Below, in pieces: positions 7,067 through 60,898 of a stretch of 64,000 nucleotides of DNA. Below the pieces are notes generated by a model. It saw nothing but the letters and a program-made list of their open reading frames with translations, was not told the DNA's origin and did not search any database. A program made the position numbers and the translations under genes. Source of the DNA: a virus. The DNA lies in the IMG/VR virus record IMGVR_UViG_3300032236_001530, positions 64,001 to 128,000 of that record, one strand, 5' to 3'. Within the stretch, counting starts at the first letter, position 1. Every line of letters starts with the position of its first letter.

Positions 7067-7497
7067 TACTTTTATTTATACTTCTATCTAGTAATTTATT
7101 TGCGCAAACTCAAATAGATGACGTTGGAGATGGTTGGAAATTAAAAGTAGACTCAGCTATCAATTTGATAAAAAAGACCAGCCCTGAGCATTATAAACAG
7201 GTTTCTGAGTATTGTAAACATGTTAGTTACTGGATGGGTGGATTTTCAACAACTCAAGATTCTGATATCGTTTTGATATCAACAAAAGATATGAAAATAG
7301 GCTCAGTTAATAACATAGCTTGTATATTAGTTCATGAGTCTCATCACTTGTATATTAAGAGTAAACATATAATACTAACCCCTAAAAAAGAAGAATTGGA
7401 ATGTTATATGTATGAATATGAGTTCATAAAGAAAGTAAACAACCCTGAAAACTGGCTGATTACACACATTATAAAAAATATTATTAATAATAAATAA
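7045..7497 (+). CDS. Secreted zincin-like metallopeptidase
   Basis: Signal peptide, LVHESHH (HExxH) and downstream EE. Confidence 0.55.
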   Translation: MYIKNALILLFILLSSNLFAQTQIDDVGDGWKLKVDSAINLIKKTSPEHYKQVSEYCKHVSYWMGGFSTTQDSDIVLISTKDMKIGSVNNIACILVHESHHLYIKSKHIILTPKKEELECYMYEYEFIKKVNNPENWLITHIIKNIINNK

Positions 7498-7526
7498 AAA
7501 ACCCACCAATTGGTGGGTTTCTTTTT
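7496..7526. terminator. Bidirectional intrinsic terminator
   Basis: A-tract, acccaccaattggtgggt palindrome, T-tract, between convergent genes. Confidence 0.85.
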
Positions 7527-7893
7527 ACTTAATACTCTCAAGTATATTCTTAATCTCTTCCAAGTGATACTTGTTACTTTTAACACTTTTCATTTTCTTT
7601 TCTAAGAAAAGGTTATTACTGATAACACACTTAGCATTGTTGTTATAATATTTGATATAAGAATCAATGTCAATTTTGCTAAGTTTGTAGTTAGAACTTC
7701 CTATCTTTTCAAGTTGGAAAAAGTCCTCGTTTATTTTAATTACTTTGAAATAAGTGAATTCATTGTAGTCATATTCGTGATAACTACCTTCAGCATTCCA
7801 CTTAAAAGTTGCCTTTGGTTTCACAAAAGTGTGTTGAGATGTTTTAGTTAAATAATTAACGATTTCTTGTTTGATTTGTTCTGCGTTTTTCAT
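7525..7893 (-). CDS. Hypothetical protein; last gene of the TAG-gated operon
   Basis: 122-aa ORF starting 4 nt after the HD gene stop. Confidence 0.6.
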   Translation of the reverse strand: MKNAEQIKQEIVNYLTKTSQHTFVKPKATFKWNAEGSYHEYDYNEFTYFKVIKINEDFFQLEKIGSSNYKLSKIDIDSYIKYYNNNAKCVISNNLFLEKKMKSVKSNKYHLEEIKNILESIK

Positions 7894-7897
7894 AATA

Positions 7898-8485
7898 TTA
7901 ATTTTTATTTTTTAATTGATTTATAATTTGTTTACCTCTTTGGTTAATACATTTCCATTTAATCTTGAAAGAGGTTGAATCAAGACCACCGAACATTTGA
8001 GCATTTGAATGTAACTCGGCTAACCCCGTTAACAATAAGGTTAAGGCATAAGGATTCTGACAGAATTGATTAACACCATCAGATTTCAATAAATGAATAT
8101 CCATGTCGTGTAGGATCAATTCAGCAGCAACTGAATTATTAAATACTTGGTTAAATACTTTATAAGATACTTCCGCATGATTTGGGAAATGTCTTTTACC
8201 ATCTGCGTCAATTTCTAAGCAGAATGGTTTACCACAATCGTGATAAATTGTGTATAGTTCTAATGTTTCATCATCTGGTAAAGACGATAAAAGAAGGTCT
8301 TTATTTTCTAAGACCCAATCTGGTAAATTCCATTCATATTGTAATGGTGTACCATTTCTTAAATGATTAATAAGGTCAAATAAGTAGTTCTTAACTGAAG
8401 TACCGTGTTCTAAAACAGATTGACCTTTGGTCTGTTCGCATTCAGACATTCTCTGAATTAATTCTTGTTTTGTAATCTACAACAT
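7898..8485 (-). CDS. HD-domain phosphohydrolase with an in-frame TAG at codon 3 (ML*ITKQELIQRMSECEQ...)
   Basis: H...HDCGK...HF.NH...H motifs. ATG at 8485-8483 lies 4 nt after the upstream stop and is in frame with the track ORF at 8449; TAG at 8479-8477. Confidence 0.75.
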
Positions 8486-8489
8486 AGTT

Positions 8490-9182
8490 TTATTTTTTAA
8501 TTTTTGTTTTTAATTCTTTACATAAATGTGGATGTACCCACTTTTCATTTTGAATATTTACTTCTTCGGCTTTGCCTTCTTCAAGTAAATTATTAAATAA
8601 TTGATATCTATCATGATGTCTTATTCCAGTAGTTTGATCTTTTATTGACTTAATATTACCATCTTCCATCTGAATAAACAAAGTTCCTTTTTTGTACTTA
8701 AAAGTTGATTTTGTTCTTTCATAATAAATTTCACAATCATCTTTTACTTTCCAAGCTTTGATTTCATAAACTTTTGGATCTTTTGGTTTACCAGTTAGCA
8801 ACTGATCAATTTTATACTCTCTATATTGAGGTTCTGTCATCTTGTATAAAGGTGCTATTCTAAATTCATAGCCATCTCTATGACTTGGGTAGATTTTAGT
8901 AGCTGCATCTAAAGCAGCACTTCTACTAACATAGATTCTATGATTCCAATAAGTAGACCAAGAATACCACTCACCTCGTGTATCTTTATATCTAAATTCT
9001 AATGTCCAACCATATACTTGAACATCATTGGCTACAGATTGTACTTTGAGTATTTGACTATCAGCAATAGCGTATTCTTTACCATTTATAGTGTATCTCA
9101 TTATATCACTATTATAATGGTCTTTAGGTTTTTCAACTTTTGTTGTTTGTTTTTTCTTAAAAATATTAAATAACTTTTTCAT
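8490..9182 (-). CDS. Hypothetical protein (internal REYKIDQLL motif)
   Basis: 230-aa ORF overlapping the end of the Pth2 gene by 17 nt. Confidence 0.65.
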   Translation of the reverse strand: MKKLFNIFKKKQTTKVEKPKDHYNSDIMRYTINGKEYAIADSQILKVQSVANDVQVYGWTLEFRYKDTRGEWYSWSTYWNHRIYVSRSAALDAATKIYPSHRDGYEFRIAPLYKMTEPQYREYKIDQLLTGKPKDPKVYEIKAWKVKDDCEIYYERTKSTFKYKKGTLFIQMEDGNIKSIKDQTTGIRHHDRYQLFNNLLEEGKAEEVNIQNEKWVHPHLCKELKTKIKK

Positions 9183-9528
9183 TTTGATTTGTTTTATTTT
9201 TTAGAGCTAAAGGTAAATGTGATAAGCTCTTACGAATTTGTGGAGTACCATAAAGACACACTGAAGTAAACTCATCTACATCAGGTTCAAAGAACATAAC
9301 AGCGTCTGTTAGTTCTTTATACTTATGATAAAGTTTTTGTAATTCAAATTCATTTTTAACTGATAAACAGATAATAGAATTTGATTCATCTTTCCACTTG
9401 GAAAAAGTTTTTGAGAATTCAAAAGCAAAGTCAGCAATTGAATGGGTTGATTGTACTACTTGGTAACCATCTGAGATATCACTTCTTGTGATAACAATTA
9501 ATTTTGGTTCTGTAATCTAATTTTTCAT
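9166..9528 (-). CDS. Pth2-like peptidyl-tRNA hydrolase with an in-frame TAG at codon 4; absent from the ORF track
   Basis: Manual translation: MKN*ITEPKLIVITRSDISDGYQVVQSTHSIADFAFEFSKTFSKWKDESNSIICLSVKNEFELQKLYHKYKELTDAVMFFEPDVDEFTSVCLYGTPQIRKSLSHLPLALKNKTNQNEKVI. It carries PTH2-family hallmarks (KL.+..R.D, Q..H, W, +.L.V..E.EL, F.EPD...T.+, L..LPL). Confidence 0.8.
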
Positions 9529-9552
9529 AATATATTTTTTTGTTTTTTGTTT

Positions 9553-9637
9553 AAAATAAAAATCCTCCATAATAAGTTCTAACCGAGTGCTCGCTCTCAT
9601 CAGCATTAGCTGGTTGGTTAGATTCCTATTAAGGAGG
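9553..9637 (-). promoter_or_regulatory. Attenuator-like RNA structure overlapping the 3' end of the leader peptide
   Basis: CCTCC-T-TAATAGG-AA-TCTAACC pairs with GGTTAGA-A-CTTATTA-T-GGAGG (19 bp), encloses two small hairpins, and is followed by ATTTTTATTTT. Confidence 0.7.
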
Positions 9638-9673
9638 TCTTTCTAAAAATTTATATGTGCTAATCTACATCAT
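9629..9673 (-). CDS. Putative leader peptide MM*ISTYKFLERPP (TAG at codon 3, ends TAA TAG)
   Basis: ATG ATG TAG ATT AGC ACA TAT AAA TTT TTA GAA AGA CCT CCT TAA; first ATG downstream of the promoter. Confidence 0.65.
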
Positions 9674-9693
9674 TGTCTTGAATTATTATACTA

Positions 9694-9725
9694 CAAATAT
9701 ATATCAAAAGTTTTGTTCTTCCAAA
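9694..9725 (-). promoter_or_regulatory. Bacteroidota housekeeping-sigma promoter (-33/-7)
   Basis: TTTG-N20-TATATTTG, matching the TTTG-N19-21-TAnnTTTG consensus. Confidence 0.75.
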
Positions 9726-9731
9726 TATTTT

Positions 9732-9950
9732 TTAAACTAAATCTATAATTAAACTTCCAGGATTAAAATATTTCTCATTTGATTTGAATCCATATAGTTT
9801 ACAAGCATCGGTGACTATATTTTTCATTCTATCACTCATACCCGTTACAACTTCAACTTGTTGGATATTTTTTTGCATCGATTCCCAAAAGAAAACATCC
9901 AGCTTTCTTTCGACATCTTCGTGTTTTATTCCGTGTAAATCAAGTTTCAT
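9732..9950 (-). CDS. Stand-alone Smr-domain protein
   Basis: LDLHG start and V+TG motif; 72 aa. Confidence 0.75.
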   Translation of the reverse strand: MKLDLHGIKHEDVERKLDVFFWESMQKNIQQVEVVTGMSDRMKNIVTDACKLYGFKSNEKYFNPGSLIIDLV

Positions 9951-11778: not shown

Positions 11779-12047
11779 AAACAAGAAAGACTGGTTTAGA
11801 ATCGTGTGAATCGAATCTTAGCCAGTCTTTTTTCTTGTGAAGTTCAGAAGTTCACATCTTCGTTCTTTCGTGTCATACACCTTTTAATTCGACCGTATCG
11901 ATATGACTGATACTAAGTCTACTGCGGGACCAACAGATTTATCATCCCCTAACCTCGGCAAAGTTTAGTCCGTTATTTGTCTGGATTGCCGTCCGTGACT
12001 TATTACGGAATATTTGTTGTTTTTGGTTTCGATATCATTACAATATC
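11779..12047 (-). ncRNA. Candidate structured non-coding RNA, family unrecognised
   Basis: About 270-nt tract with no long ORF, GC-richer than its surroundings, between a -33/-7 promoter and a long terminator stem; several internal helices. Confidence 0.5.
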
Positions 12048-12053
12048 TTATTA

Positions 12054-12084
12054 CAAAGATACAACAAATATCTAAAACAACAAA
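12054..12084 (-). promoter_or_regulatory. Bacteroidota-type promoter
   Basis: TTTG-N19-TATCTTTG. Confidence 0.7.
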
Positions 12085-13645: not shown

Positions 13646-14350
13646 CTATTTTGAATATTTGGTTGTATTAAAGAACTCTTTGTAGGTAACAATTTTATTA
13701 CCACCTTGGATAGCATCAACTTCTTCTTTTTCATCATCATCCATTATCATCATTTTAAGATCGGTACCTTTTTCAATTGGTGCTTCATATTCAAAGCTAT
13801 CAAGGTCTTTATCCATAAATGTATAATCTTTTGGTGATGTTTCAAAACCAAAGCTGTTAAAGAAGTTAACTATATTTTGTAATGATTCGTCAGAGAAACC
13901 AAAATAAGTTTCACCATCATATAAAGAACCTTTACCTGTATAGTGTATAACTTCTACTTTATTAGGATAATCAATAGTGAAGTGGTAAACCATAGCATCA
14001 CCATATGTTAATTCAACATTTAATCTAAGTTTATCAGCTGGATTTGCGTGAGCACCATCATTATCTTTAACAATAGTAACGTCAAATTCTAATTGATCTG
14101 GTTCACCGTCAGCTAAAACGTCACCACCTTCTGAATCTACGGTGTTATGTGCATAAGTAATTTGAATACAATTCATCAAATTAGCAACATCAATTGAGTG
14201 ATTAGTACCTGGGCTTAAACCTGGTTTTCTTTCAACTTCAAATTCACCATTCTCGGTGATAATTGTCAATGTTTCTGGTAAAAACTTTGACCAATCTACT
14301 TCAAATATACTGGTAGATTCGCTTTCGTTAAACTTTTTTAAATATCTCAT
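13646..14350 (-). CDS. Hypothetical protein with an MRYLKKFNE leader
   Basis: 234-aa ORF; ends in TAG used as a normal stop. Confidence 0.6.
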   Translation of the reverse strand: MRYLKKFNESESTSIFEVDWSKFLPETLTIITENGEFEVERKPGLSPGTNHSIDVANLMNCIQITYAHNTVDSEGGDVLADGEPDQLEFDVTIVKDNDGAHANPADKLRLNVELTYGDAMVYHFTIDYPNKVEVIHYTGKGSLYDGETYFGFSDESLQNIVNFFNSFGFETSPKDYTFMDKDLDSFEYEAPIEKGTDLKMMIMDDDEKEEVDAIQGGNKIVTYKEFFNTTKYSK

Positions 14351-60394: not shown

Positions 60395-60898
60395 TTATAA
60401 ATCTTTATTTTTTTCACTTTCTAATTCACCTACAACATAATCTAAAAATGAATCTAATTCATATTCCAGGCCATTACAAAACTCAAACACATCATATGAT
60501 TCTTCATTTGGTTTTTTAGACACTGAATAAAAATCTGGTGATATTTGATTACTATTAAAAACAACTATTCTACCCTCTAATCTACCTTCAATTCTTTTAC
60601 CACTTGGGAATACTAAGTCTGGTACATACAAAGTGCCTATATAATGCACCTCATCACCATAATCTTCTGTTTCGGTGTGTTCAAATTTGAAATATCCATT
60701 ATCATCTTCAAATACTCTCTCACTTTCATCAACAATCATCTTATTATGAACTTCTTCTTGATTTCCTGACTTATGCGCATTTAGAAAATCTCTTTCATCA
60801 TCTCGCAATGAAGACATTCCATATTTAGATATTTTATCCAATATGTCATCTACTCTTTGTTGAGCTGTATATCCTTCATATCTCATTAGATGTTTCAT
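60395..60898 (-). CDS. Hypothetical protein with an MKHLMRYE leader
   Basis: VD.ILDKISKYG..SL...ER.FL helical motif. Confidence 0.6.
   Translation of the reverse strand: MKHLMRYEGYTAQQRVDDILDKISKYGMSSLRDDERDFLNAHKSGNQEEVHNKMIVDESERVFEDDNGYFKFEHTETEDYGDEVHYIGTLYVPDLVFPSGKRIEGRLEGRIVVFNSNQISPDFYSVSKKPNEESYDVFEFCNGLEYELDSFLDYVVGELESEKNKDL

Follow-up and report, generated by a model that had tools for sequence, protein, structure and literature searches.

Amber codons at the start of Pth2-like and HD genes of large phages: probable gates opened by a phage tRNA with anticodon CUA

Why should a phage that uses TAG as a stop codon also keep TAG in frame, a few codons after the start, in genes of one operon? 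This question is raised by a stretch of 64,000 nucleotides of viral DNA, positions 64,001 to 128,000 of IMG/VR record IMGVR_UViG_3300032236_001530 (the window), in which an operon on the minus strand encodes a Pth2-like protein and an HD-domain protein behind a short leader. The contig containing the window (G000) is 155 kb and a fragment, ~83% complete by CheckV. Based on comparisons with related phages, we think that the UAG codons of the Pth2-like and HD genes are probably translational gates opened by a phage tRNA with anticodon CUA, tRNA(CUA), and that the leader adds an attenuator. The comparisons included the closest relative, G001 (385 kb, 95% complete, 86% protein identity), G003 (508 kb, 97% complete), two uncultured phages of 634-642 kb, LR745206 (W01) and LR756502 (W02), and related phage loci with L-numbers, mostly from IMG/VR (L065 belongs with G001).

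The three in-frame amber motifs were present as originally predicted, in the leader, the Pth2-like gene and the HD gene (Table 1). The frame had been said to stay open after each TAG. That was so for the Pth2-like gene (116 codons) and the HD gene (192 codons), but not for the leader, in which only 11 codons follow. TAGATTA by itself was not enriched in the window (34 matches, 29 expected). The pattern ATG-(1-2 codons)-TAGATTA occurred four times in the window, three of them within the 1.2-kb stretch of the operon. Across all 155 kb of the contig, a long open frame followed such a motif only at the Pth2-like and HD sites.

We found that the gates were conserved among distant relatives. The sample consisted of ~50 gates from some 35 related phage loci (23 Pth2-type, at least 22 HD-type and 5 leaders), and at least 12 cultured jumbo phages had gates (GAP32, CBB, BF, XacN1, RsoM2USA, ME3, Arash, pT24 and others). 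The stop was invariably TAG, never TAA or TGA, and in every gate an in-frame ATG preceded it by 1-12 codons. Within the mini-open reading frame (mini-ORF), sense codons were free to vary while ATG and TAG were constant. The base at +4 was a purine in all ~50 gates, compared to 44% after genuine stops; a 3' purine is the classical context favoring amber suppression. All of the Pth2-like genes examined (23/23) had the gate, and a start-proximal TAG was found in HD genes of 17 of 22 IMG/VR loci and also of cultured phages. Relatives bearing gates spanned 30-86% protein identity for Pth2 and 38-85% for HD. W01 and W02 (~69% nucleotide identity) kept ATG-(1-2 codons)-TAG-ATT at the leader and the Pth2-like gene, and W01 kept it at the HD gene as well. 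At the leader, ATG-(1 codon)-TAG-ATT was kept in W01, W02, G001/L065 and L066.

A tRNA(CUA) gene adjoined the Pth2-like and HD genes in most loci. ARAGORN placed one within ~3 kb of the HD gene in nine loci (L073, L078, L079, L083, L084, L086, L087, L089 and L090), and by ARAGORN or the annotation of the record there was one near the genes in GAP32, XbC2, BF, fHe-Yen9-04, CBB, pT24, ME3 and Arash. The CUA tRNAs that ARAGORN called in G001, G003 and many loci were canonical. In four loci (L068, L070, L071 and L074) a non-canonical tRNA(CUA) of ~81 nt, overlooked by ARAGORN, lies exactly between the promoter and the gated Pth2-like gene, and in L097 a tRNA of this kind lies ~260 nt upstream of the gated Pth2-like gene. 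The slot that it fills in these relatives is that of the leader and hairpin in the window. Across this family, 97% of cells are paired in the acceptor, anticodon and T stems, and 10 of the 15 pairs are compensatory, a covariation reached by 0 of 500 shuffles. The anticodon CUA is centered in its loop; the D region and the 8-9-nt loop are atypical.

If the gates depend on tRNA(CUA), then genomes with gates and no adjacent tRNA should encode one elsewhere. This was true in 4 of 4 complete or nearly complete relatives, with one tRNA(CUA) each (Table 1). The amino acid carried by the suppressor cannot be inferred, because lineages differ in their acceptor and discriminator bases and the residues that align with the TAG positions are variable.

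Several other tRNA genes are unusual. In Salmonella phage Arash (OQ632216), the gene at L223:3979-4053 is annotated as tRNA-Phe and has the anticodon CUA according to ARAGORN. The adjoining coding sequence, gp84c, a 50-aa 'peptidyl-tRNA hydrolase', is a truncated call of an amber-gated Pth2-like gene. In G000, two tRNA-like genes (L091:1576-1873; G000 60590-60887, minus strand, 3.1-3.4 kb before the window) have UUUUCG in place of the anticodon loop. One bears an insertion of ~100 nt, and their neighbors are an ordinary tRNA-Met and several Bacteroidota promoters. An element of this kind also occurs in W01, near 421.5 kb. These genes cannot decode and may be processing signals for neighboring RNAs. 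W01 also has an ARAGORN call with an 8-nt anticodon loop ('gtag') at 407364-407437. We rejected the odd ARAGORN calls as suppressors: the UUUUCG-loop tRNA of G000 and the 'gtag' and 'gt' tRNAs of W01 all lack a CUA anticodon. A search of IMG/VR with a strict DNA pattern for a tRNA with a 9-nt loop returned mostly ordinary tRNA-Arg(UCU) and was abandoned.

TAG is otherwise used as a stop. It was not recoded globally in the window, as originally stated, and does terminate ORFs at 13646, 48772 and 55901. In G000, G001, G003 and W01, 7-11% of long ORFs end in TAG, TAA accounts for 74-81% of stops, and pairs of ORFs joined by TAG were not in excess of expectation. Under code 11, ORFs fill the window densely, and in G001 the gate pattern fits only the Pth2-like and HD genes. 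Since the code is standard and the gates are confined to these genes, the suppressor tRNA seems to serve a tiny, dedicated set of clients. The gain in ORFs with TAG as sense, measured in 5-kb loci, was too noisy and was not used.

Some loci contain other genes with ATG-x-TAG-AT(C/T) starts (L078:2046 and L079:2046, both on the plus strand, and L081:851), with products of 138 and 150 aa. They adjoin the HD gene and a tRNA(CUA), and had no BLAST match to Pth2 or HD. The set of gated genes may be larger in some lineages.

How do ribosomes get past the UAG? The original prediction was a conditional switch, thrown either when termination at UAG fails or by reinitiation at the adjacent AUU. Our comparisons point to expression that needs UAG to be read as sense, with a phage suppressor tRNA as the trigger; reinitiation is disfavored. 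They speak neither for nor against another trigger named originally, impairment of RF1 by host defense. We favor decoding because the codon after TAG varies and is often not a start codon, because TAG is invariant, and because in some phages TAG lies within conserved HD sequence. The next codon is ATT in the AT-rich clade, and elsewhere it is ATC, ATA, GTA, GTT, GCT, GCA, ACC, ACT, AAC or AAT. The HD gene of GAP32, XbC2, BF, fHe-Yen9-04 and CBB begins at an ordinary ATG and carries TAG-GGC internally, at codon 47, with a conserved Q..HG motif upstream and the HD motif downstream. Since there are conserved motifs on both sides, a functional enzyme needs this TAG to be decoded, and reinitiation cannot make it. 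Because of the internal TAG, annotation has split the gene into two or three small hypothetical coding sequences in GAP32 (L217:2486-3052) and in BF, fHe-Yen9-04 and CBB (L225-L227:3486-4052).

The sequence immediately after the start-proximal TAGs is also part of the proteins. The Pth2-like frame of the window has no ATG, GTG or TTG for 73 codons past TAG, and the PTH2 domain begins at about residue 4-6. The part of the HD frame that lies past TAG and ahead of the first internal ATG (8449) is conserved at the protein level and aligns with homologues that start normally. Residues 3-12, ahead of that ATG, form a confident N-terminal helix in the AF2 model.

It is conceivable that RF1 terminates at UAG after a mini-ORF of two or three codons and that ribosomes restart at the adjacent AUU with no suppressor tRNA; the mini-ORF would then only load ribosomes and hold expression at a low level, or make it sensitive to IF3/RRF. 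ATT follows TAG in 13 of 13 gates of the close clade of the window and in most AT-rich relatives, AUU is known to serve as a weak start codon in bacteria (infC), and the contig lacks a tRNA(CUA). We nevertheless consider this model improbable. It does not fit the lineages with GCT, GCA, ACC, ACT, AAC or AAT after TAG, or the GAP32-type TAG at codon 47. TAG is always the stop at gates even though TAA is by far the more common stop in these genomes, and the model leaves the tight linkage to tRNA(CUA) unexplained.

Other routes past the stop were considered and dropped. Frameshifting or hopping at the mini-ORF was rejected: the ATG, TAG and long frame are in one frame, and both shifted frames close within ~10 codons. 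Quadruplet (UAGA) or quintuplet decoding by a tRNA with a 9-nt loop would exit the zero frame. An initiator-type tRNA(CUA) starting at UAG was rejected as well; positions 1 and 72 are paired in these tRNAs, the three G-C pairs of initiators are missing, and there is an upstream ATG in every gate.

The enzyme assignments made originally hold at the level of the family. The Pth2-like protein of the window alone matched Pfam PTH2 with an E value of 1.6e-4 (22.3 bits; cut-off 23). By sequence profile its family belongs to PF01981, which all 14 aligned members matched (best E 1.1e-7), and the family profile matched archaeal Pth2 2zv3 (E 1.4e-7) as well as 24bt, 1wn2, 1rlk, 1rzw and 1q7s. Residues R11, D13, Q22, H25 and S47 are invariant in the alignment. 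The product is a predicted ester hydrolase of the PTH2 type.

The HD protein matched Pfam HD (E 2.6e-4) and has the metal-binding motif of PF01966 (H..HD..H..D), with H24, H79-D80, H100, D124 and H128 invariant in 17 sequences. Its AF2 model (pLDDT 96.7) has an all-helical HD fold. The best Foldseek matches were 3wfr and 3wfo (TMq 0.56-0.65, probability 1.0); PgpH, OxsA, PhnZ and 1xx7 were lower in the list. The sequence matched the 3wfo-3wfs chains over their residues 285-379 only. The PDB records carry the title 'tRNA processing enzyme' and the name poly A polymerase, and we take these chains to be class II tRNA nucleotidyltransferase. The HD protein has no nucleotidyltransferase head domain of the Pol-beta type and is not a member of that class. 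It is, as judged from sequence and model, a stand-alone protein that resembles the HD part of the nucleotidyltransferase, which this analysis thus places nearest to it. The HD domain of the CCA-adding enzyme of Escherichia coli is a 2',3'-cyclic phosphodiesterase and phosphatase.

The two enzymes are fused in both orders, Pth2-HD in L084 and pT24 and HD-Pth2 in XacN1, Xoo-sp13 and RAS14. These fusions tie the two enzymes into one function. In addition, ~45 of the best 150 library representatives have an N-terminal extension of ~100-135 residues, which is fusion-like by size alone. Judging from the families, both enzymes are likely to act on the 3' ends of tRNA.

The leader was originally counted as a third gated gene, and this did not hold: its 11-codon frame runs into a terminator hairpin. 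The leader looks like an attenuator rather than a protein-coding gene. In the window, W01, W02 and G001, the frame after TAG-ATT continues for 11-12 codons (x-T-Y-...-P-P) to TAA, and it is maintained despite a 3-nt difference in length. It enters the hairpin in 5 of 5 leader-bearing relatives and ends in Pro-Pro-UAA, with the stop inside the 5' arm, in 4 of the 5. In L066, the leader frame has 31 codons and reaches the upper part of the hairpin. The CCU CCU UAA codons make up the 5' strand of the lower stem (CCUCCUUAAUAGG / CUUAUUAUGGAGG), which is followed by the U-run AUUUUUAUUUU. RNAalifold found 15 pairs, 4 of them with compensatory changes. A stable hairpin with an immediate U-run thus lies between the promoter and the first gene, and we read it as a putative intrinsic terminator with the role of an attenuator. 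Going by the footprint that ribosomes usually have, we estimate that a ribosome stopped at the leader UAG would reach only ~9652, leaving the hairpin free, whereas one that had passed UAG and was sitting at Pro-Pro-UAA would cover the lower stem. This geometry fits an attenuator that would pass transcription only upon suppression of UAG.

Two other ideas about the leader were dropped. A hammerhead-like sequence in its loop (CUGAUGAG) was not kept in relatives, and the notion that the hairpin is a degenerate tRNA was unsupported by ARAGORN, Rfam or the alignment. Rfam scans found no ribozyme or riboswitch in the leader; scans of the window and the operon gave no family match, just terminator-like noise at 7.5 kb.

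The simplest notion is that ribosomes would start at the conserved AUG of each gate and, without tRNA(CUA), would terminate after two or three residues. With tRNA(CUA), UAG would be read as an amino acid and the full enzymes would be made. In the clade of the window a third gate, the leader AUG AUG UAG ahead of the terminator, would act on transcription. Only a ribosome that had passed the leader UAG could occupy the 5' arm, block the hairpin and let RNA polymerase enter the operon, a logic of the pyrBI type.

The purpose that we favor for such an arrangement is that the level of the enzymes would be coupled to suppressor activity. The enzymes might limit the suppressor tRNA by deacylating or trimming it, forming a homeostat like that of prfB. 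They might instead clear by-products of suppression, that is, short peptidyl-tRNAs that have dropped off and ribosomes that have run into 3' ends. Or the gates might be purely a timer. We offer one specific version tentatively, and with less confidence than the gates themselves: a self-measuring homeostat of suppression, in which the only clients of tRNA(CUA) in the genome would be the Pth2 and HD gates and, in the clade of the window, the leader as well, making three locks in series, and in which the enzymes would act on the tRNA or on by-products. Such a homeostat could possibly have been the seed of TAG recoding in Lak/Mahaphage.

Another explanation has UAG decoded without help from the phage. 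The operon would sense RF1 activity, with near-cognate host tRNAs reading UAG only when RF1 is limiting (stress, host defense or a co-infecting recoded phage), and the enzymes would be a backup for failed termination. UAG is the only stop specific to RF1, termination at early codons is slow, a 3' purine favors readthrough, and prfB, in which an in-frame UGA senses RF2, provides a precedent. We give little credence to either the sensor or the backup role. Every complete or nearly complete genome with gates encodes a tRNA(CUA) itself, often within the transcription unit of the gated genes, and this tRNA would leave a pure RF1 sensor permanently 'on'. In addition, three gates in series, each with readthrough of at most 1e-3 (a rough figure), would give almost no product.

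It is very unlikely that the three gates are just a few of many sense TAGs in a generally reassigned code (code 15). Related Lak phages of the Mahaphage clade are TAG-recoded (PMC7162821), and suppressor tRNAs are typical of recoded phages (10.1101/2021.08.26.457843). Such phages have in-frame TAG across many genes and do not use it as a stop. Here, however, in-frame TAG was found only in the gated genes, and the dense ORFs under code 11, the share of long ORFs ending in TAG and the lack of excess TAG junctions all speak against reassignment.

That the TAGs are assembly errors or nonsense mutations in decaying genes is hardly credible, even though gene callers and GenBank annotators handle the gated genes as truncated or split: the same codon is kept at the same position at 30-86% protein identity in ~35 independent loci and at least 12 cultured isolates, and the downstream coding sequence is intact, conserved and free of other lesions. 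Since homologues from independent assemblies and isolates have TAG and not a sense codon, the TAGs are neither sequencing errors nor recent mutations.

Several observations weigh against gates operated by a phage tRNA(CUA). There is no tRNA(CUA) within the 155-kb contig of the window, itself a fragment; extrapolating from the gene order of G001, the gene would sit ~54 kb past the contig end. The tRNA of W01 and W02 has a 9-nt anticodon loop that also contains UCU, that of W01 scores just 16 bits against Rfam tRNA, and we assume that these two tRNAs decode UAG. The invariant ATT in the clade of the window is also predicted by reinitiation at AUU. The Pro-Pro-UAA ending of the leader is inseparable from the pairing needs of the hairpin, with peptide and RNA both constraining CCUCCUUAA. 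Finally, genuine TAG stops do not avoid a following purine; the frequency was 44%, equal to that for TAA (Fisher p = 1). There is thus no sign that these phages shield their own TAG stops from a strong suppressor, and this lack of context avoidance argues for suppression that is weak or controlled.

We found no published description of such a system, in agreement with the original prediction, and no paper that connects PTH2 or HD genes with suppressor tRNAs of phages. Borges et al. discussed both the suppressor tRNAs of relatives that use the standard code and how late genes are gated in recoded phages, and expected non-canonical tRNAs to be overlooked; their preprint does not mention the Pth2 or HD genes (10.1101/2021.08.26.457843). 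Suppressors are not mentioned by Al-Shayeb et al. (PMC7162821). In XacN1, two tRNA(CUA) genes were reported and target genes were not identifiable (PMC5852040). These orphan suppressors are the same tRNA(CUA) in the same genomes. The authors looked at readthrough of the 3' ends of genes, whereas the TAG that we found at codon 3 of XacN1 ORF364, the HD-Pth2 fusion, is a 5' target outside that survey (PMC5852040).

The proposed gates resemble several known systems in part. As in recoded phages (TAG as Gln, code 15; crAss-like, Lak), a phage tRNA(CUA) is proposed to switch on genes with in-frame TAG. In contrast to those phages, which scatter TAG in late and lysis genes, TAG is here still a working stop and is in frame at two or three sites of one operon, 1-12 codons past the start, in genes for tRNA-end enzymes linked to the tRNA gene. 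As in prfB (RF2), an early in-frame stop in a translation-factor gene would report how that stop is read. However, prfB senses a release factor by a +1 frameshift, whereas here the frame is unchanged, the input is likely a suppressor tRNA and feedback is hypothetical. As in pyrBI of E. coli (pyrL), the terminator would be blocked only by a ribosome translating the leader up to the hairpin close behind polymerase; the input there is UTP-dependent polymerase pausing, and the input proposed here is the reading of UAG at codon 3.

Two likenesses concern the short peptides. The bar minigenes of lambda are also ORFs of two or three codons with a stop, poor termination and release of short peptidyl-tRNA, a substrate of Pth. 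They are stand-alone and toxic in pth-defective hosts, whereas here the mini-ORF is the in-frame beginning of the Pth2-like gene; that peptidyl-tRNA drops off at these gates is our conjecture. Like TnaC and the RAPP/RGPP arrest leaders, the leader has Pro-Pro just before its stop (E-R-P-P-stop), and such an ending is known to slow termination. Unlike RAPP/RGPP, it is not R-A/G-P-P and its Arg is not kept in W01 and W02 (V-P-P and K-P-P), and the codons are also constrained by the hairpin.

The remaining genes complete a single operon, since genes overlap or are 4 nt apart (Table 1). The HD gate begins 4 nt past the stop of a gene for a 230-aa protein, which had no Pfam or PHROG match. This gene is confined to a sub-clade (W01, L065 and L066); elsewhere the Pth2-like and HD genes are adjacent or fused. 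The 122-aa protein of the last gene also had no family match in the Pfam and PHROG comparison, and its homologues trail the operon in W01 and W02.

Table 1. Features of the operon in the window and tRNA(CUA) genes in relatives
Feature	Sequence	Position	Strand	Basis or remark
Promoter, Bacteroidota-type (TTTG ... TAtaTTTG)	window	9694..9725	-	pattern match; block conserved in alignment of W01, W02 and L066
Leader gate ATG ATG TAG ATT, UAG at codon 3	window	ATG 9673-9671, ATG 9670-9668, TAG 9667-9665, ATT 9664-9662	-	
Leader frame after UAG, 11 codons (I-S-T-Y-K-F-L-E-R-P-P) and TAA (9631-9629)	window	9629..9664	-	sequence
Long hairpin (9637-9564) and U-run (9563-9553)	window	9553..9637	-	RNAfold of six leaders, RNAalifold
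Pth2 gate ATG AAA AAT TAG ATT, UAG at codon 4	window	ATG 9528-9526, TAG 9519-9517, ATT 9516-9514	-	
Pth2-like frame past UAG, 116 codons and TAA	window	9166..9516	-	PTH2 profile matches
230-aa protein, ordinary ATG start, 17-nt overlap with end of Pth2-like gene	window	8490..9182	-	ORF list
HD gate ATG TTG TAG ATT, UAG at codon 3	window	ATG 8485-8483, TAG 8479-8477, ATT 8476-8474	-	
HD phosphohydrolase frame past UAG, 192 codons and TAA	window	7898..8476	-	motifs, AF2 model
122-aa protein, last gene of operon	window	7525..7893	-	ORF list
Operon terminator, 12-bp GC-rich hairpin and U-run, bidirectional	window	7496..7523	-	
tRNA(CUA)	W01	507340-507420		own promoter
tRNA(CUA)	W02	609678-609784		
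tRNA(CUA)	G001	370132-370204		ARAGORN
tRNA(CUA)	G003	121630-121702		ARAGORN

Directly upstream of the operon promoter, the window encodes a 72-aa Smr-domain protein (9735-9950, minus strand; Pfam E 2.5e-6). Smr proteins in E. coli cut mRNA on collided ribosomes. The gene is not kept at that position in W01 or W02. In W01, the gene directly upstream of the operon promoter (L001:1300-1500) ends like a class II aminoacyl-tRNA synthetase (...GMPTHGGMGIGLERI...) and is, from this resemblance, a further putative translation gene adjoining the module. Elsewhere in the window (11779-12084, minus strand), ~270 nt that lack a long ORF lie downstream of a promoter and end in a long hairpin and U-run. This element had no Rfam match and may be a small structured RNA.

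The proposed gating by a tRNA in phages with the standard code is apparently an unpublished form of gene control that depends on a suppressor tRNA. Our results name concrete, conserved targets for jumbo-phage suppressor tRNAs whose purpose has been unexplained, in genes that annotators currently truncate, split or overlook. If the proposed mechanism is correct, a tRNA would operate a natural genetic switch in genomes with an otherwise standard code, and the UAG-gated leader and terminator, if true, would be a new type of input for leader-peptide attenuation. The link between suppression and two enzymes with a probable role in cleaning or repairing the 3' ends of tRNA points to an unstudied cost or control of suppression. 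The model is directly testable in cultured phages, several of which infect bacteria in routine laboratory use. It also suggests a route by which recoding of a stop codon may begin, with a few gated genes beside a tRNA.

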